Of a stretch of 32,509 nt of DNA, positions 6,950 through 14,507 are shown piece after piece; positions within the stretch are counted from its first letter, which is position 1, and every line of letters starts with the position of its first letter. Both the position numbers and the translations under genes were made by a program. The notes beneath the pieces are model-generated. The model ran no database searches and had not been told where the DNA came from. It was given only the letters and a program-made list of their open reading frames with translations. The stretch is taken from contig JBBQRQ010000056.1 in the NCBI GenBank assembly GCA_038214755.1, positions 1 through 32,509 on the forward strand, written 5' to 3'. The stretch comes from Verrucomicrobiota bacterium. Lineage in GTDB: Bacteria; Verrucomicrobiota; Verrucomicrobiia; Limisphaerales; CANJXF01.

Positions 6950-7107
6950 AAATCCGAATCCCCGAAATCCGAAAGAAATCCGAAATCCGAATTCGGAAAA
7001 CGATTTCCCGCAATGGCAAAGACAAGCGCTTTCGCCACACGCACAGTTCCACGACATTTTCGACCTTCGGGTTTCGGATTTCTTTCGGATTTCGGATTTC
7101 GGATTTT
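6950..7107. repeat. Inverted pair of (AAATCCG)n heptamer arrays around a spacer of about 75 bp
   Basis: The left arm aaatccgaatccccgaaatccgaaagaaatccgaaatccgaa (6950-6991) is a near reverse complement of ttcgggtttcggatttctttcggatttcggatttcggatttt (about 7066-7107). Confidence 0.9.
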
Positions 7108-7112
7108 AATCA

Positions 7113-7919
7113 TCACGCTCTGCGAATAAATTTCGCAGCAATCCAACCCGCCAAAACAACTCCGGAAAGAATCAGCCAGCCATAACGTTCGTTGCCGTAG
7201 AGAAGCGGGAAATGATTGCTAATCATAATAAACACAACGGGCACCGCCATGAAAGTGTTGTGGCGTGAAGCATTTTTGGCGCGGCGAGCTTCGTCTTGAT
7301 TCGGAGTTTTTCCCTCCTTGAGCGCGGCGACCATGCGGCGTTGCGCGGGTAGAATTCGCATCCAGACATTCGCGACCATAATCGTGCCGAACATCGCGCC
7401 AAGTTGCAGATACGCGGCGCGGCCACTGAAATAGCGATGGAGAAACCAGTTGAGCGCGAGAATCAAAATGAAGGCGACAATGGGAAAAGCGATTTCATTT
7501 CTGACCAATTTACCGAGAACCAGATCGTAAATAAGCCAACCGCCGATGAGAAGTCCGAGACTAAGGCCGATGGCGGCGTGATTGGAAATGGGCGATTCCT
7601 CGACGCTGATCATCAAGCCGCCCATATAATAAACCACGCCGAACAACAGGAATCCGCTGAGCCACGTCAGCGCCGCTTCCCAGCGAAACCAGTGCAGAAG
7701 TTTCGGCATGACTTGGGGGACTTTCTGTTTTTCCACACGATAAAATCCGCCGCTGTGAACCATCCACACTGGTTCGCCGGCAGTGTCATTTTTTTCCAGT
7801 TCCGCGAAACGCCCATCGAGCCAGGTAAAAAAATAAGTCGTGCCGACCCACATGATTCCAGCGAAGACGTGGACCCAGCGCAGAATGGCGTCGAGCCAGG
7901 TGGATATTTCAGCGTTCAT
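7113..7919 (-). CDS. PuuD-like membrane protein (urate oxidase N-terminal domain only)
   Basis: LRWVHVFAGIMWVG, WMVHSGGFY, LHWFRWEA, GAMFGTIMVANVW..ILPAQR and SRHNTFMAVPVVFIMISNHFP. No C-terminal CxxCH. Confidence 0.82.
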   Translation of the reverse strand: MNAEISTWLDAILRWVHVFAGIMWVGTTYFFTWLDGRFAELEKNDTAGEPVWMVHSGGFYRVEKQKVPQVMPKLLHWFRWEAALTWLSGFLLFGVVYYMGGLMISVEESPISNHAAIGLSLGLLIGGWLIYDLVLGKLVRNEIAFPIVAFILILALNWFLHRYFSGRAAYLQLGAMFGTIMVANVWMRILPAQRRMVAALKEGKTPNQDEARRAKNASRHNTFMAVPVVFIMISNHFPLLYGNERYGWLILSGVVLAGWIAAKFIRRA

Positions 7920-7995
7920 TGATTTGGGCGAATTGCGAACTGCCGAAAAAACTGAACAGCGTTTGCGCGTTCGTTCAAGATTTAATTCCGCGACG

Positions 7996-8063
7996 GTAGC
8001 CGCGGAGGTGAGGAAGCGGATTCTTTATCGAAGCGTAATCCGCCTCCTCACGTCGGCGGCTAC
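7996..8063. repeat. REP doublet (REPIN-like palindrome), GTAG family A, intergenic
   Basis: gtagccgcggaggtgaggaagcggat ... atccgcctcctcacgtcggcggctac; same family as 16561-16634. Confidence 0.9.
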
Positions 8064-8070
8064 AAAATAT

Positions 8071-11000
8071 TCATCCGAGCGCAGCCAGAGCAGTTTCGAC
8101 GTGCTGTTTTTTCGCCTGCCAATCCGTCAACCGCTTTTGATGTTCTTCCAAAACGGCGGGCGGAACTTTTTGAGTGAACGCGGGGTTGTTTAATTTCTGT
8201 TCGACCTTCACGATTTCGGCGTTGTTTTTTTCCAGTTCTTTTTTCAGACGGACTTTTTCGGCTTCGACATCAATCAAGCCTTCGAGGGGTAAAAACAATT
8301 CTCCGAGGGGCGAAAGCGCCGAAGGCGTTCCTTTCGTCGCCGTGAAAGTGGGATTCACTTCGAGCGATTCCGCGTTGAGCAGGATTTTCAAAACTTCGGC
8401 GTCGTGTGATTTGAAATCACGCGACGGTTTGAAAATAAATTTGACGCGTTTGCTGGAAGGAATGTTTCCTTCGCGCTGAAGGTTGCGCCCGTGAGTGACG
8501 AGTTCGTATTTCGCATCGACCAATCGCGCGTCGCTTTCATTGAGGCGGTAGTGGGATTTGAAATCGTCGTCGAAGGGTTTCGGCCACGGCGCGAACATGA
8601 TCGAATCGCCGCCCTGCCCTTTCGGCAAATCGCGATTGAAATTCATGCCGTGCCACAGTTCCTCAGTGATGAACGGAATGAACGGATGAAAAAGCCGCAG
8701 CGTGTTCGAGAGAATAAAATCCATCACGGCCAGCGTGTTGATTTTTTGAGTCGTTGAATCGTTGACTGGTTGAATCGTTGAACCGGCTTCCGATTTAACG
8801 TTTTCACGTTTTAACGATTCAACATTGTGTGACAACACCGCTTTGCTCGCTTCGATATACCAATCGCAATACTCGCTCCAAAAGAAACGGTAAAGCGCGG
8901 TGGTGGCTTCGCTGAATTTGTATTCGGCCAGTGCGCCGGAAACTTCGCGAATGGCTTGATCGAGTTTCAGCAAAATCCATTGGTCGTCGCCGGTGAGAAG
9001 TTCAGGACGAATTTCGCCTTCAGTTTCCCATGTGCTGGCGATATTCTGTCGGCTGTTCTGGTTCTCGTCTGCGCTATTTTCTGCCGACAGAATGTCGGCA
9101 GCACTTTGGTTCTGCATCTGGCGGAAGCGGCAGGCGTTCCAAAGTTTGTTACCGAAGTTGCGACCGAGTTCGACATCTTTTTCATCAAACAAAACATCCT
9201 GTCCGATGGGTGCGCTGCGCATCGTGCCGAAACGCAAAGCGTCCGCGCCGTATTTGGCGATGAGTTCGAGCGGGTCGGGCGAATTGCCGAGCGTCTTCGA
9301 CATTTTGCGACCCTGTTTGTCGCGAATGATGCCGGTGAAATAAACGTTCTTGAACGGCAGATCGCCCATGAATTCGTAGCCCGCCATGATCATGCGCGCG
9401 ACCCAGAAGAAAATAATGTCCGGCCCGGTGACGAGATCGGTCGTCGGATAAAAAGCTTTGAGCGTCGGCGTTTTTTCCGGCCAACCCATCGTGGCGAACG
9501 GCCAGAGCCAGGAACTGAACCAAGTGTCGAGGACGTCGGGGTCTTGCTCCCAGTCGGCGCCGGGAGACTCAATCTGGCAACGCGTCAAAAATTGTTCCGA
9601 GTTGACGTCCGCCAAAACGTCGGACAATTTAATTGATGAGACCGGTGTAGGCCGGGTGACCAACTTCTCTTCACGGAGATGCGTTCCCGGAGACTTGATA
9701 CCATCGGTCTCGTTTTTTTGTACTTCAACCGCTTGATGATCATAGAGCAGCCGGCCATCTTCGCGTTCCTTCACCACAATTTTAACGCGGTGCAATCGGC
9801 CTTGGTAGCGATAGCCCGCGAAAAACAGATGGACACATTTCCAAGGCGGAGCGGGCGGATCATGCGGGAGACTAACCAAATGAATTGCCCCTTCAATTAA
9901 CATGGGCAAGTGCGGCAGGAGTTTCACATTGGCAACGCCGAAATTTGAAAAAGCATGTTCGAGACTCGAGGCCCGCACCTCAATTTCCCAACCGGTATCT
10001 CGATTTAAGAATGAACGATTGAGCAGGTGGTGGGTTTCTGCCCAATGCCAAGCGGACGCACGCAATTCTTTTATATTTTTGCCGGTGATTTCGCTGTCAG
10101 AAAAATCCGGTATCTCCAAATCTTTTTTTAAATTATCCGCCGCAGTTTTCGCGTACCAAACCGGAATCCGATGCCCCCACCAAAGCTGACGACTGATGCA
10201 CCAGTCCTGAATGTTCGTCAGCCAATGATCGTAAACTTTCGCCCAGCGCTGCGGATGAAAGCGCATTTTGGTTGTCGCCCGACTCGAATGAAGTTCTTGT
10301 GTCCAGCCTGGTCCCGGTGATCCGATTTGACAACGGACCAAAAGCGAGGGATTGACCACGGCAACAAGATCAGCCAACTTAATTGCGGAGACCGATGCAG
10401 GCCAGGGGGCAAAGCTTCCCGAAACGGAAGCCTCCTCTGGAGAATACTTACCGTCGGTCTCTATTTTTTTTACCTGCACGGTTTGGTGATCATATAAGCG
10501 TAATCGGTTGTGAAATTCCTTTACGGTGAATTTGACGCTGAACAACGTGTGGCCCAGGTGGATCGCAGCGTAAAAAACATGCACACACACGATTTCACGC
10601 GCCGGAGGGTCGTGCGGCACAGTGGCCACCCTCACCGCATGACGCAGCAAAGCTGGCAGTGACGGAACCAGTTTTATGTTTGCCAATCCCTTGTTGGAAA
10701 AAGCGTGTTCCAAACTCGACTGTTGCACCGTGATGTCGAAACCCGCGTCCAAGTTTGGGAAATCGCTATTCAGAAAACCGTGTTCTTCCGCAAAACGCCA
10801 AGCCTTGGCGCGAATTTCTGATGCGCTTTGGCCGGAGATCGCGTGCCAATCCTGTTTGATGATGGGAATGATTTTCTCAGCCGCCTCATGCCATCGGGAG
10901 TTATGCCAGACGGGAATCGTAACCTCCATTCCGTACGGCTTGTCGGAATCAGCGCCCTGAATAGCCGCCTCCTCGTTCTGCTCCACGCACTCCTTGGATT

Positions 11001-12252
11001 CCTTCACCACCGGATATTTCAAAAACCATTGCTCGCTCAGGCGCGGTTCAATCGGCACGTCGGCGCGTTGACTGTAACCGACGTTGTTTTCGTAAGGCTT
11101 TTCTTCGACGAGCGCGCCGAGTTCGCGCAAACGATCCACCGCTTCATTTCGCGCCTCGAAACGGTCCAGACCGGCGAGCGATTCGCCCGCCAAATCGTTC
11201 ATCGTCCCGTTCGGATTCATGATGTCGATGAGCGGGAGTTTGTGGCGCGCGCCAATCTCGAAATCGGCTTTGTCGTGGGCGGGCGTCACCTTGAGCACGC
11301 CGGTGCCGAATTCAAAATCGACCTGTTCATCGCCAATGATGGGAATGAGTTTTTGCTCGTGCGGAATCTGAATCGGCAGCGGACGAATAATATGTTTGCC
11401 GATGAGATGCGCGTAACGCGTGTCTTTCGGATTCACGGCGACGGCGGTGTCGCCGGGAATCGTTTCAGGCCGCGTTGTGGCGATGGTGAGCCAGATGCGT
11501 CCTTGATCGTCGACTTCCGCGCCGCGTCTTTTGTCCTTCGTAGCAGCCAACGTGAGTTGGCTCTGACTTTTCTCGGAAGGAATATCAGCGGACTCATGTC
11601 CGCTGCTACCAGTAGCGTCTGCAACCTGAACTTTGAAGTGATACATGAAACCTTTTTGCGGTTTCATTTCGACTTCTTCGTCGCTAAGCGCGGTTTGCGA
11701 AACAGGACACCAATTCACCATTCGTTTGCCGCGATAGATGAGTCCCTTCTTGTAGAGATCGACGAATACGCGCTGCACGTGGCGCACGTAGTCGGCGTCC
11801 ATCGTAAAACGCTCGCGCGTCCAGTCGCACGAGCAACCAAGCTTTTTGAGTTGTTCGATGATGATACCGCCGTGCTTTTCCTTCCACGTCCACACACGCT
11901 TGATGAATTCCTCCCGCCCGATGTCGCGCTTGGATTTTTTTTCTTCCTTCCAAATCTGTTTGGACACCATGCCCTCGGTGGCGATCCCGGCGTGATCGGT
12001 GCCGGGGAGCCAGAGAACTTCCTTGCCGTCCATGCGCGCTTTGCGACTGAGAATGTCCTGGATGGTGTTGTTGAGGACATGGCCCATGTGGAGCATGCCA
12101 GTGACATTCGGCGGCGGAATGACGATGGAATAGGCGGGGCGTTTTTCACTGACGCGCGTTGGATCGGCGACAAAACATTTTTGCTCCAGCCAAAATCGAT
12201 ACCATTTTTCCTCCACGGATTGAGGCTCATAGGCTTTGGGAATTTCAGACAT
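8071..12252 (-). CDS. valS: Valyl-tRNA synthetase (about 1393 aa) with multiple in-frame insertions
   Basis: PPPNVTGMLHMGH (HIGH), ATTRPETIPGD, DWCISRQLWWGHRIP, DPDVLDTWFSS, KMSKT, YCDWYIE and a C-terminal coiled coil. Start at MSEIPKAYEP (12252). Confidence 0.98.
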   Translation of the reverse strand: MSEIPKAYEPQSVEEKWYRFWLEQKCFVADPTRVSEKRPAYSIVIPPPNVTGMLHMGHVLNNTIQDILSRKARMDGKEVLWLPGTDHAGIATEGMVSKQIWKEEKKSKRDIGREEFIKRVWTWKEKHGGIIIEQLKKLGCSCDWTRERFTMDADYVRHVQRVFVDLYKKGLIYRGKRMVNWCPVSQTALSDEEVEMKPQKGFMYHFKVQVADATGSSGHESADIPSEKSQSQLTLAATKDKRRGAEVDDQGRIWLTIATTRPETIPGDTAVAVNPKDTRYAHLIGKHIIRPLPIQIPHEQKLIPIIGDEQVDFEFGTGVLKVTPAHDKADFEIGARHKLPLIDIMNPNGTMNDLAGESLAGLDRFEARNEAVDRLRELGALVEEKPYENNVGYSQRADVPIEPRLSEQWFLKYPVVKESKECVEQNEEAAIQGADSDKPYGMEVTIPVWHNSRWHEAAEKIIPIIKQDWHAISGQSASEIRAKAWRFAEEHGFLNSDFPNLDAGFDITVQQSSLEHAFSNKGLANIKLVPSLPALLRHAVRVATVPHDPPAREIVCVHVFYAAIHLGHTLFSVKFTVKEFHNRLRLYDHQTVQVKKIETDGKYSPEEASVSGSFAPWPASVSAIKLADLVAVVNPSLLVRCQIGSPGPGWTQELHSSRATTKMRFHPQRWAKVYDHWLTNIQDWCISRQLWWGHRIPVWYAKTAADNLKKDLEIPDFSDSEITGKNIKELRASAWHWAETHHLLNRSFLNRDTGWEIEVRASSLEHAFSNFGVANVKLLPHLPMLIEGAIHLVSLPHDPPAPPWKCVHLFFAGYRYQGRLHRVKIVVKEREDGRLLYDHQAVEVQKNETDGIKSPGTHLREEKLVTRPTPVSSIKLSDVLADVNSEQFLTRCQIESPGADWEQDPDVLDTWFSSWLWPFATMGWPEKTPTLKAFYPTTDLVTGPDIIFFWVARMIMAGYEFMGDLPFKNVYFTGIIRDKQGRKMSKTLGNSPDPLELIAKYGADALRFGTMRSAPIGQDVLFDEKDVELGRNFGNKLWNACRFRQMQNQSAADILSAENSADENQNSRQNIASTWETEGEIRPELLTGDDQWILLKLDQAIREVSGALAEYKFSEATTALYRFFWSEYCDWYIEASKAVLSHNVESLKRENVKSEAGSTIQPVNDSTTQKINTLAVMDFILSNTLRLFHPFIPFITEELWHGMNFNRDLPKGQGGDSIMFAPWPKPFDDDFKSHYRLNESDARLVDAKYELVTHGRNLQREGNIPSSKRVKFIFKPSRDFKSHDAEVLKILLNAESLEVNPTFTATKGTPSALSPLGELFLPLEGLIDVEAEKVRLKKELEKNNAEIVKVEQKLNNPAFTQKVPPAVLEEHQKRLTDWQAKKQHVETALAALG
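8746..8823. repeat. Inverted octamer arrays (TTGAATCG / GATTCAAC) translated inside valS
   Basis: ttgagtcg ttgaatcg ttgactgg ttgaatcg ttgaaccg ... gatttaac gttttcac gttttaac gattcaac; protein VESLKRENVKSEAGSTIQPVNDSTTQ. Confidence 0.8.
9032..9104. repeat. REP-like doublet (family B) in frame inside valS
   Basis: gtgctggcgatattctgtcggc ... ctgccgacagaatgtcggcagcac; near-identical arm at intergenic 14149-14172. Confidence 0.85.
9712..10089 (-). other. LPD3-like domain inserted in ValRS (copy 2)
   Basis: N.DTGWEIEV..SSLEHA...LP.LIEGA...VHLFFA......HRVKIVVKE..DGRLLYDH, resembling large-polyvalent-protein domain 3 (recognised by eye). Confidence 0.7.
10465..10839 (-). other. LPD3-like domain inserted in ValRS (copy 1)
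   Basis: Aligns without gaps to copy 2; 66/130 identical residues by hand count. Confidence 0.7.
11540..11609. repeat. REP doublet (GTAG family A variant) in frame inside the valS editing-domain region
   Basis: gtagcagccaacgtgagttggct ... agcggactcatgtccgctgctac; each arm is GTAG plus a hairpin; protein GSSGHESADIPSEKSQSQLTLAAT. Confidence 0.82.
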
Positions 12253-12286
12253 AGTTAAACTGTAGAAACGCGGAGGCGCAGAGAAA

Positions 12287-13942
12287 TCATCTTTGTAAGA
12301 GCGCGTATTCCAAGGAATCCTCCAATGCTTGCAAGCTGGCCTCGATAATATTTTCGCTGACACCCACGGTACCCCATTCATTTTTGCCATCGGTAGATTC
12401 TATCAGAACACGGGTCCTGGCAGCCGTGCCGGGACTGGTCAAAGAAAACAGATCGTCGAGTGCTGGTTTTAGAAGGTCATTTCTTTCGCCAAGTATCCGC
12501 CGCGTTTCCCTCACTCCTGATTGGAAGGAATCACCTAAAATTCGAACTTTATAATCGGTGAGTCGAATTTTTTTGAGTTGAGGGAAGGACTTAACTAAGG
12601 CGGCCCGCAGAGCGGCGTCTAAAGCGTTCACTGGCCCCTGACCTTCAGCGACTTCGTCATGAACCACTTTTCCTACGCGCACACAGACGCTCGCGGCGCA
12701 GACAGACTGTTTAGCATCGCGCCGCATCGAAACGTGATACTTCTCTACCGTGAAGAATAGTTCCGGATTGTGATCCAATATACCGCGAATCAATAACGCC
12801 ATCGAAGCCTCGGCTGCCTCATATTCATACCCGTCGTGCTCACGTTGTTTGATGGTGCTGAGAATTTGTTTCAGTTCCGGAGTCTCGTTCGTGATTTTGA
12901 AACCCAGTTCCTGCGCCTTCATCACGATGTTGCTGCGGCCCGACAAATCGCTGACCAAGACGGTGCGTTCGTTTCCAACTAACTCCGGTTCGATGTGCTC
13001 ATAGCTGGCGGAAAGTTTTTGCACCGCATTTACGTGGGTTCCTCCCTTGTGCGAAAATGCGGCCGAACCCACCCACGGCAATCGCGGATTGTGCCGGATG
13101 TTGGCAATCTCATCGACGAATTGGGAAAGCTCTTTCAATCGGCGCAATGACGATATTGGCACGCAACTTTTTTTTAACTTCAGCGTCACGCAGGGAATCA
13201 CGCTGGTCAAATTGCAATTGCCCGTGCGCTCGCCGTAGCCATTGATTGTTCCTTGCACATGGACCGCGCCAGCGTCCAGCGCCGCCAACGCGTTAGCCAC
13301 ACCCAGACCAATGTCGTCGTGAGTGTGGATACCGATTTTACAATTTAATTGACTCCTGGCGAATGCGGTGATGTTCGCAATTTCCTTGGGCAAACAGCCG
13401 CCGTTGGTATCGCACAGCACGACAAGATCCGCCCCCGCTTTTTCCGCCGCCTGCCATGTGGCCAAAGCGTATTCCGGATCAAGTTTATATCCGTCGAAAC
13501 AATGTTCCGCGTCGTAGATGACAAACTTCCCGTGGTCTTTCACGAACCGAACCGTGTCGCTAATCATCGCGAGATTTTCTTCCGGCGTACAGCGCAGAAC
13601 TTCCTTTACGTGCAACATGGAAGTCTTGCCATAGATCGTCACCACAGGCGTGGCCGCGTCGATGAGCAAACGAACTTGATCATCCTTCTTCACCGAAATG
13701 TTTTTGCGTCGAGTGGAACCGAACGCCGCCAGCCGCGCGTTTTTGAATTTTCTTTTTTTCGCCTGGGCAAAAAATTCAATGTCTTTCGGATTCGATCCCG
13801 GCCAGCCGCCTTCAATGTAATGAACGCCAAAAGAATCTAATTTTTCGGCGATGCGAAGCTTGTCCGCCACCGAAAAATTCACGCCTTCACCCTGACTGCC
13901 GTCGCGCAAGGTCGTGTCGTAGATTTCAACTTCAGGTTTCAT
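12287..13942 (-). CDS. cimA: Citramalate synthase (LeuA/CimA family)
   Basis: YDTTLRDGSQGEG, IEGGWPGSNPKD, YDAEHCFDGYK, LCDTNGG, HTHDD, GYGERTGNCNL, AFSHKGGTH and WGTVGVSENIIEAS. Start at MKPEVE. Confidence 0.93.
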   Translation of the reverse strand: MKPEVEIYDTTLRDGSQGEGVNFSVADKLRIAEKLDSFGVHYIEGGWPGSNPKDIEFFAQAKKRKFKNARLAAFGSTRRKNISVKKDDQVRLLIDAATPVVTIYGKTSMLHVKEVLRCTPEENLAMISDTVRFVKDHGKFVIYDAEHCFDGYKLDPEYALATWQAAEKAGADLVVLCDTNGGCLPKEIANITAFARSQLNCKIGIHTHDDIGLGVANALAALDAGAVHVQGTINGYGERTGNCNLTSVIPCVTLKLKKSCVPISSLRRLKELSQFVDEIANIRHNPRLPWVGSAAFSHKGGTHVNAVQKLSASYEHIEPELVGNERTVLVSDLSGRSNIVMKAQELGFKITNETPELKQILSTIKQREHDGYEYEAAEASMALLIRGILDHNPELFFTVEKYHVSMRRDAKQSVCAASVCVRVGKVVHDEVAEGQGPVNALDAALRAALVKSFPQLKKIRLTDYKVRILGDSFQSGVRETRRILGERNDLLKPALDDLFSLTSPGTAARTRVLIESTDGKNEWGTVGVSENIIEASLQALEDSLEYALLQR

Positions 13943-14044
13943 TTCTTCGCCGTGGCGGAACGAAATCTCTACGACACGAATCCCGGATTGCAAAGCCCAA
14001 AGTCCTCCACACCAAGCGCTGAGTCGCACCTCGCCATCGGCACC

Positions 14045-14172
14045 GTAGCGCAGGTTTCTAACCGGCAGCGCTTAAAACATTCAAGCATCTGCGGACCGGA
14101 AATCCATGATCCGGCAGATTAAGAAATCTGTGCTCCGAGGCTGGCGTATGCCGACAGAATGTCGGTAGCACT
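14045..14172. repeat. Decayed REP cluster (GTAGCGCAG family plus one family-B arm)
   Basis: gtagcgcaggtttctaacc...gcagattaagaaatctgtgctcc followed by tgccgacagaatgtcggtagcact. Confidence 0.65.
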
Positions 14173-14182
14173 CTTCTGCGCA

Positions 14183-14380
14183 TCACCAACGCGGCGTCAA
14201 CTTCATGTGGACTTGTTCAGGCCGCGCGTTGGGCGATGGTTCCCAATCCAACGCGCAATCCACCGCGCGGCGCATCTGGGCGAACCACCATTGCGCGCGG
14301 CTCAACCGGCGTTGGCGTTGATTGTTCACAGCGCAGCGAATCGTTCCGTTCAATCCGAGTTCCATTTGTTCTTTATTCAT
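14183..14380 (-). CDS. Small hypothetical protein (65 aa)
   Basis: ATG-initiated ORF filling the gap, divergent from the pseudouridine synthase; protein-like RRLSRAQWWFAQMR...W.P...RPEQ. Confidence 0.6.
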   Translation of the reverse strand: MNKEQMELGLNGTIRCAVNNQRQRRLSRAQWWFAQMRRAVDCALDWEPSPNARPEQVHMKLTPRW

Positions 14381-14507
14381 GCGCCAAGATTATTCGCATC
14401 GGTCAGACAAAGACTGTCTAAGCGGGAGAAAGTTTTGAGGAATTCAAAAAAATTTCGCTTCACAGAAAAGTCGGGTTGATCGTTCATACTGTCGGAAACA
14501 TTTCTTG

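Follow-up and report, generated by a model that had tools for sequence, protein, structure and literature searches.

The valyl-tRNA synthetase (ValRS) gene of a Verrucomicrobiota bacterium of the order Limisphaerales carries the phage-type domain LPD3 at two sites within a single reading frame. The gene, valS, lies on contig JBBQRQ010000056.1 of GenBank assembly GCA_038214755.1, of which positions 1 to 32,509 were analysed and are called the window here; all coordinates refer to it. At the native site (site 2) the domain forms part of a module, insert 2, which occupies a hairpin of the enzyme. At an upstream surface loop (site 1) a second module, insert 1, is bordered by copies of both arms of that same hairpin. 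Insert 1 is probably an ectopic hairpin-plus-LPD3 copy which came from the valS allele of another lineage and became fixed in frame in a tolerant loop. The arms act as a molecular tag, and the source that they mark is another valS allele and not a phage gene or a mobile element.

The likeness of the two modules extends from one arm to the other. BLASTP gives a single alignment of insert 1 with insert 2, which runs from IPVW to W.Q[ED] with 94 of 209 positions identical (45%), one gap and E=3e-57. The codon-aligned DNA is 53% identical and its third positions 38%, and the copy is therefore old. The longest DNA repeat within positions 9400-11100 is an in-register LPD3 stretch of 56 nt at 75%, and the repeats are internal only. 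In a six-frame translation of the genome (10.2 million residues), CQ..SPG..W.Q and IPVW[YH] are each found twice, in all cases at the two valS sites. Every invariant column of a 24-module alignment is kept in both inserts, and the flank columns that insert 1 retains in this way are P5, V6, W7, R198, Q200, P204, W208 and Q210. Its IPVW is encoded by ATT CCC GTC TGG at 10917-10906 on the minus strand. The residues just outside insert 1 are EVT before it, where the native sequence has GHR, and ELHS after it, where the native sequence has DPDV.

Both flanking motifs belong to ValRS and not to LPD3. A comparison of the region between DWCISRQ and DVLDTWF in the valS genes of relatives yielded 58 distinct site-2 segments. 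IPVWY is present in all 16 of the short insert-free segments and the exact CQ..SPG..W.Q in five of these 16, just before the native core, and an LPD3-sized insert stands between the same two motifs in 22 of the 58. For the domain outside ValRS, a profile of the 24 modules was searched against 1.84 billion representatives, which returned 1590 proteins at E<=0.001, and the best 150 of these were inspected. No ValRS core motif occurs in 144 of the 150, many of which are 2000-5800 aa long. The C-flank motif is found in none of these 144 proteins (234,219 residues), and IPVW in one, well away from the LPD3 of that protein. These non-ValRS proteins have in common with the valS modules the N-linker and the tail as far as '...LL.DVN'; the domain proper therefore spans approximately profile positions 17-195, with outer pieces that derive from ValRS. 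A second motif of the IPVW or C-flank type was found in none of 64 other valS frames and in none of 37 database ValRS proteins, so that among the valS frames examined the flanked ectopic copy is so far confined to this genome. Hence, with flanks that are native to ValRS and second motif copies that are unique, insert 1 is a copy of the native hairpin-plus-LPD3 module.

An original prediction, made from the letters of the window, had located the IPVW and the C-flank of insert 1 correctly. It held that the segment from IPVW to W.Q is repeated upstream in a diverged form and that the repeated unit is the domain together with host-gene flanks, and both statements are borne out. The two points on which it depended, that the flank similarity is significant and that CQ.SPG..W is not a property of the free-standing domain family, were also found to be so. 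It further described the domain plus flanks as the mobile unit, which is apt for insert 1 and fails as a general mobile form, as the 17 other site-1 inserts known from the order have no flanks.

The phylogeny points to a source outside the gene. In the database, insert 1 is most similar to P0002 (72% identity at 100% coverage), P0003 (69%) and P0004 (68%), all of which have a single module at native site 2 and an empty site 1; the database search found no relatives of insert 2 above 52% identity. A maximum-likelihood tree was built from 77 modules with the ValRS flanks removed. In this tree, insert 1 is nested among the native-site modules on a short branch (0.2), as the sister of P0002 and not of insert 2, within a starred set that includes P0003 and P0004 (97/87), and the flank-less inserts at site 1, 17 in number, group in a single separate clan (99/93). 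A forced clade of inserts 1 and 2 gave a log-likelihood difference of 65.9 and p=0.0002 in the approximately unbiased (AU) test with 77 rows. A simple intragenic duplication should make the two copies each other's nearest relatives, but insert 1 has P0002 as its sister.

The backbone of the enzyme has a different affinity. The nearest backbones are those of same-genus genomes, which are 84-88% identical in the N-terminal parts and 97% in the core segment M that lies between the two modules; these genomes have no LPD3 match and hold another stretch of 90-117 residues at site 2. The backbone of P0002 is 76% identical to this ValRS in N1, 57% in N2 and 76% in M. Set against the 72% of the module, these values make insert 1 more P0002-like than the adjoining backbone. 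Since insert 1 has 72% identity to a native-site module from elsewhere and 45% to the resident insert 2, it most likely came from a diverged allele of valS in another lineage and not from insert 2. Of the two routes that the original prediction had offered, recombination with a diverged valS allele is thus favoured by these identities and by the AU test, and a plain old internal duplication is disfavoured. There are also hints that an older copying from site 2 to site 1 may have given rise to the flank-less site-1 class; in a quick tree with 20 non-ValRS domains as the outgroup, which is a weak root, this class falls among site-2 lineages (SH-aLRT 90).

The assembly was compared over positions 9400-11046 with the Logan unitigs of the probable source run, which is possibly the source of the genome itself and so is not an independent sample. 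One unitig spans 10193-11046 with 0 differences, and covers the end of N2, the linker X that precedes insert 1, insert 1, the linker Y that follows it and 74 nt of M. A second unitig spans 9400-10222, likewise with 0 differences, and covers M, insert 2 and S. A flanked insert 1 that precedes a genuine M therefore has independent support. The depths of the two unitigs are 22.5 and 17.8, and the alternative joints among the records listed have depths of 3-11 or 34.

Several observations weigh against the origin of insert 1 from a foreign allele. The AU test with 39 rows gave only p=0.047 for a clade of the two inserts, and insert 2 sits on a long branch (0.85) with a weak placement, which can distort this test. 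The nearest relative of insert 1 is still only 72% identical. The two unitigs overlap by 30 nt in the conserved M, where a depth of 116-246 comes from other valS alleles, and the linkage of insert 1 to insert 2 rests on the original assembly plus the similar depths. The two-module arrangement is, moreover, a singleton from one metagenome-assembled genome.

The steps by which a foreign module may have reached site 1 can be outlined as follows. DNA of a diverged valS allele would have entered the cell, and the near-invariant core sequences around both sites could have acted as homology arms for the exchange of cassettes, which would explain the discordance between the insert and backbone trees. 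One module would then have been joined in frame into the site-1 loop through at least one illegitimate joint, and both LPD3 copies would be under constraint because the domain is of use on ValRS. The original prediction had added that neither transposase nor intein machinery would be needed, and the searches are consistent with this, as no intein, transposase or terminal repeats were found. The repeat search of 9400-11100 revealed no terminal inverted repeats or target-site duplications at the insert borders. Beyond this absence of border repeats, there is nothing else to mark the inserts as a transposon or a miniature inverted-repeat transposable element (MITE): the genome has only two LPD3 loci, and a palindromic repeat known from relatives is absent from this valS. 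No Hint or homing-endonuclease Pfam family was found in the valS product at E<=1, and the residues of intein splice junctions are absent, the module starting with I and ending with QE followed by L. Neither linker could be derived from the native core. Compared as a degenerate form of M, linker X has an ungapped BLOSUM score of -16 against the native core before IPVW (shuffle p=0.10), and its DNA reaches a local score of 14 against this gene's own M, equal to the shuffle mean, with only a shared ATTCAGG. Linker Y as a copy of the native DPDVLDTWF scores -12.

A different course of events would be an internal duplication that was followed by cassette replacement, in which a P0002-like site-2 module was duplicated into site 1, perhaps as a tandem copy of M plus module with later loss of the redundant core copy, and the site-2 module afterwards gave way to the present insert 2 through homologous recombination at the conserved core. 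The order P-X-I1-Y-M-I2-S (I1 and I2 being the two inserts) is the one that a tandem duplication would leave after loss of the first M. The sequence 'IQ' stands 13 residues before IPVW in both contexts, and swapping of cassettes is plausible in a gene whose LPD3 trees and backbone similarity are so widely at odds. Even so, this course is unlikely, as it requires three events where the copy from a foreign allele requires two, neither the protein nor the DNA comparison detects a trace of a first M in linker X, and the same-genus backbones have no LPD3 at site 2. A plain old duplication, in which the resident insert 2 gave rise to insert 1 and the two then diverged in place, has in its favour the shared gene, the same module limits and the 45% identity. 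It is nevertheless very improbable in view of the 72% identity of insert 1 to a foreign native-site module and the rejection of the clade of both inserts at p=0.0002.

It is also quite improbable that the arrangement is an assembly chimera, in which two co-occurring valS alleles were joined through M and the modules never shared one gene. The unitigs of the probable source run do end in M with their short overlap, and several other valS alleles of the sample share the M node, at depths of up to 246-361. On the other hand, an open frame extends through 4.2 kb and has ordinary ValRS sequence on either side, both halves are closest to the same genus, and the depths of the two unitigs agree better with each other than those of any listed alternative joint; even a chimera would leave a flanked insert 1 upstream of a real M, bridged by one unitig. 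An independent capture of LPD3 at site 1 from a phage or plasmid polyvalent protein, with flank motifs that arose by chance or belong to the domain, could draw on the abundance of LPD3 in giant proteins that lack ValRS motifs (144 of the best 150 among the 1590 matches). It is scarcely credible when the C-flank motif is absent from all 144 of these proteins, insert 1 lies deep inside the ValRS site-2 modules and the motifs occur nowhere else in the six-frame translation. Copying from the valS allele of another lineage thus remains the probable origin of insert 1.

LPD3 inserts are distributed patchily across the order. Many of its ValRS proteins bear the domain at site 2, on the tip of a short hairpin bounded by IPVWY and CQxxSPGxGWxQD. 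With insert 2 as the query, 38 of 401 genomes matched at E<=1e-5. The LPD3 module was found at site 2 in 23 genomes including the present one, LPD3 at site 1 without either ValRS motif in 16 (including the unpublished G009), and both of these kinds together in four (G012, G085, G391 and G113). Three of the matches are weak, of which L067 at site 2 and L069 at site 1 are tail-only remnants and the third is G199; tail remnants of LPD3 at site 1 were also found in L039 and L053. In the remnants the LPD3 core is lost and a tail peptide (GGK.P.AH...KL...P.P...) is left, which in L067 stands between an intact IPVWY and VQSDSPGPGWEQD. Hence, the inserts are also lost by deletion. Site 1 is permissive, as it holds flank-less LPD3 in 16 genomes, deletion remnants and in-frame palindromic repeats. 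The 17 other site-1 LPD3 inserts all lack both ValRS motifs and constitute a class separate from insert 1.

Beyond the order, one of 400 other genomes in a phylum-wide sample gave a match, to a large non-ValRS protein, and the source names of the database matches point to Verrucomicrobiota, including Limisphaerales, Pedosphaera and Chthoniobacterales. The only two LPD3 matches of the present genome are both in valS. A near-length search for free-standing close relatives of the module returned a single match, a partial ValRS, and a scan of genome contigs for relatives gave three loci, the best at 52%. Among metagenome contigs, 190 pattern matches included no relative and no instance of the same arrangement. 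A soil-metagenome contig of 160 nt from a different study matches positions 10319-10478, which hold the tail of insert 1 and the beginning of its C-flank, at 93% identity. No protein match comes as close to insert 1, and the contig is too short to give context.

Other insertions were seen in the same gene of relatives. In several of these relatives, valS carries in frame a palindromic and MITE-like element, about 129 nt long (42-nt arms, 83% complementary), at a site in the editing domain and at site 1. For example, it is found at L012:228-356 and 894-1022 and at L008:883-943 and 1486-1546, and also in L015, L014 and L018. The copies within one valS are 92-95% identical, and related copies are present on at least nine contigs of the present genome, with none in its valS. 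A different site-2 insert without LPD3 occurs in 20 distinct valS segments (L010, L013, L015, L007, L008, L009 and others); these segments measure 60-190 residues, and in the examples inspected the insert starts after IPVW[TSRH] and replaces the CQ..SPG arm. The flank-less site-1 LPD3 of G012 (L049/L006) contains an internal tandem repeat of the tail (LYDHKAKK...LLADVN twice). In G113, the valS pieces with LPD3 are divided between two contigs. On C330 (L064), a site-1 LPD3 runs up to the end of the contig; C238 (L045) opens with the tail of another site-1 LPD3, which is followed by a site-2 module. These two contigs may represent two strains that were binned together.

LPD3 (PF18798) is the 'large polyvalent protein-associated domain 3' of the polyvalent proteins of phages and conjugative elements (Iyer et al., 2017; PMC5512222). 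That paper lists LPD1-40 among domains whose function is elusive, and a search of it for terms found neither 'tRNA synthetase' nor 'valyl'. The polar residues R39, N58, H74, K136, Y145, D146 and H147 are kept in both inserts and are common to LPD3 outside ValRS, being held by 70-100% of 20 non-ValRS domains. A confident AlphaFold model of insert 1 with its arms has a mean predicted local distance difference test (pLDDT) value of 84.2 and a predicted template modelling (pTM) score of 0.79, and only the tail linker 156-179 falls below a pLDDT of 50. The flank pieces are predicted to form strands at VWHN (6-9), VRC (197-199) and WTQ (208-210). Foldseek with the module model gave no match against the PDB at E<=0.001. 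The best VIA-align score was Z 5.5 (6cp9_A, root-mean-square deviation 3.3 over 89 residues), and all Z values are below the tool noise level of 7-8. Approximately 15 of the 50 VIA-align rows listed are toxins of the RelE, BrnT, CdiA-CT or colicin D type, as judged by entry titles and at background Z, and the best rows include NTF2-like domains with Z of 3-5.5, which is background by the rating of the tool. A RelE/BECR-like RNA-binding role of LPD3 is only a lead.

The product of valS is a class Ia ValRS with intact catalytic motifs. It carries the HIGH- and KMSKS-type signatures as HMGH (aa 55) and KMSKT (aa 983), contains the Pfam families PF00133, PF08264 and PF10458, for the tRNA-synt_1, anticodon-binding and C-terminal arm domains, in addition to LPD3 (PF18798) twice, and matches the solved Thermus ValRS 1GAX at E=4.9e-185. 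No second ValRS gene was found in the genome, which is 97% complete, and the doubly inserted enzyme must therefore work. Aligned with 1GAX, the product has site 1 (aa 418-662) between residues 368 and 379 of that enzyme and site 2 (aa 704-900) in the place of residues 420-445. The latter residues form the zinc hairpin of Thermus ValRS. The starts of the two modules are 250 codons apart, and segment M is 97-100% identical in the nearest backbones. The features are collected in Table 1.

Table 1. Coordinates in the window of valS, its two LPD3 modules and the segments around them (aa, residues of the valS product; ORF, open reading frame)
Feature	Position	Strand	Details
valS	8071..12252	(-)	1393 aa (P0001), starts MSEIPKAY; ORF translation
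Linker X, left junction between conserved ECVEQ and insert 1	10918..10977	(-)	aa 426-445, NEEAAIQGADSDKPYGMEVT
Insert 1, ectopic hairpin-plus-LPD3 module, upstream loop (site 1)	10294..10917	(-)	aa 446-653, 208 residues
Copy of ValRS N-terminal hairpin arm, IPVWH	10903..10917	(-)	register shared with insert 2 and P0002
Pfam LPD3 core of insert 1	10492..10821	(-)	45.3 bits (cut-off 27); 47.2 bits in genome search
Copy of ValRS C-terminal hairpin arm in insert 1	10294..10332	(-)	CQIGSPGPGWTQE
Linker Y, right junction before native core	10267..10293	(-)	aa 654-662, LHSSRATTK
Native catalytic-core segment M, between both modules	10168..10266	(-)	aa 663-695, MRFHPQRW...DWCISRQLWWGHR; aligns to 1GAX 379-419
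Insert 2, resident hairpin-plus-LPD3 module, native site (site 2)	9544..10167	(-)	aa 696-903, 208 residues
Pfam LPD3 core of insert 2	9742-10080	(-)	57.8 bits; 59.2 bits in genome search
Native C-terminal hairpin arm, insert 2	9541..9579	(-)	CQIESPGADWEQD, runs on into native sequence

Housekeeping genes neighbour valS, no mobile-element neighbours were found, and a search of 7000-14500 gave no match to Rfam families. Further stretches of the product have no counterpart in 1GAX, namely a 40-residue low-complexity insert in the editing domain (aa 211-250, 11503-11622) and two in the anticodon-binding region (aa 1048-1086 and 1142-1171). The third-position G+C is 0.52 in insert 2 (9544-10167) and 0.56 in insert 1 (10294-10917) and is higher, 0.66-0.73, in the adjoining conserved core; the C-terminal third of valS is also low (0.575), and G+C is thus a weak sign of foreign origin.

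The arrangement shares features with several known systems. Like the LPD3 of polyvalent proteins, both inserts score above the Pfam cut-off (27 bits) and keep the conserved residues, the linker and the tail; here, however, the domain is inside an essential housekeeping enzyme, outside any polyvalent protein. Lineage-specific insertions are a feature of class Ia synthetases: site 2 is exactly the variable hairpin represented by residues 420-445 of Thermus ValRS, and site 1 is a second gap relative to 1GAX, at residues 368-379. The difference is that a foreign domain of 180 residues is inserted here twice, the second time with the enzyme's own arms. Mosaic alleles arise from imported DNA, and homology-facilitated illegitimate recombination takes place in transformable bacteria. 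The insert tree that is discordant with the backbone, the near-invariant core DNA beside both sites and the absence of mobility genes resemble such alleles, whereas here the recombination would have placed a module in frame at an ectopic position within the same gene.

Similarly, inteins and homing endonucleases are large in-frame insertions in conserved enzymes with a patchy occurrence among relatives, but the present modules have no Hint or endonuclease domain and no splice residues, and remain in the mature frame with host-derived arms. Rickettsia palindromic elements are in-frame palindromic repeat insertions in coding genes. The 129-nt palindromic repeat that valS of relatives carries in frame, within the editing domain as well as at site 1, is comparable to these, and the same valS loops therefore accept insertions; insert 1, in contrast, has neither inverted termini nor such a repeat and encodes a folded domain. 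A limited literature search gave no account of LPD3 within an aminoacyl-tRNA synthetase. To the extent of the searches, the occurrence of a phage-type domain at two positions in an essential ValRS is a setting that has not been described previously; the processes themselves, namely domain insertion and mosaic alleles in synthetases, are known.

A wider and rather doubtful possibility is that valS in this order is a cassette locus. LPD3 modules and other inserts would be swapped between distant lineages by means of core DNA arms and would occasionally land ectopically, at least once with the arms attached, as here, and probably once long ago in the origin of the flank-less site-1 class. LPD3 might then be a RelE/BECR-like RNA-interacting domain derived from phage or plasmid polyvalent proteins, which was kept and doubled since it acts on tRNA-Val or on ValRS in conflict with phages.

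It is seldom possible to see how whole domains come to be inserted within essential enzymes. In this order a single gene presents the full series: the hairpin alone, the hairpin tipped with a phage-type domain, remnants left by deletion, a separate older class at a second loop and, in the present genome, an ectopic copy that has retained its arms. The case thus offers testable material on the tolerance of ValRS to insertions and on the role of LPD3.

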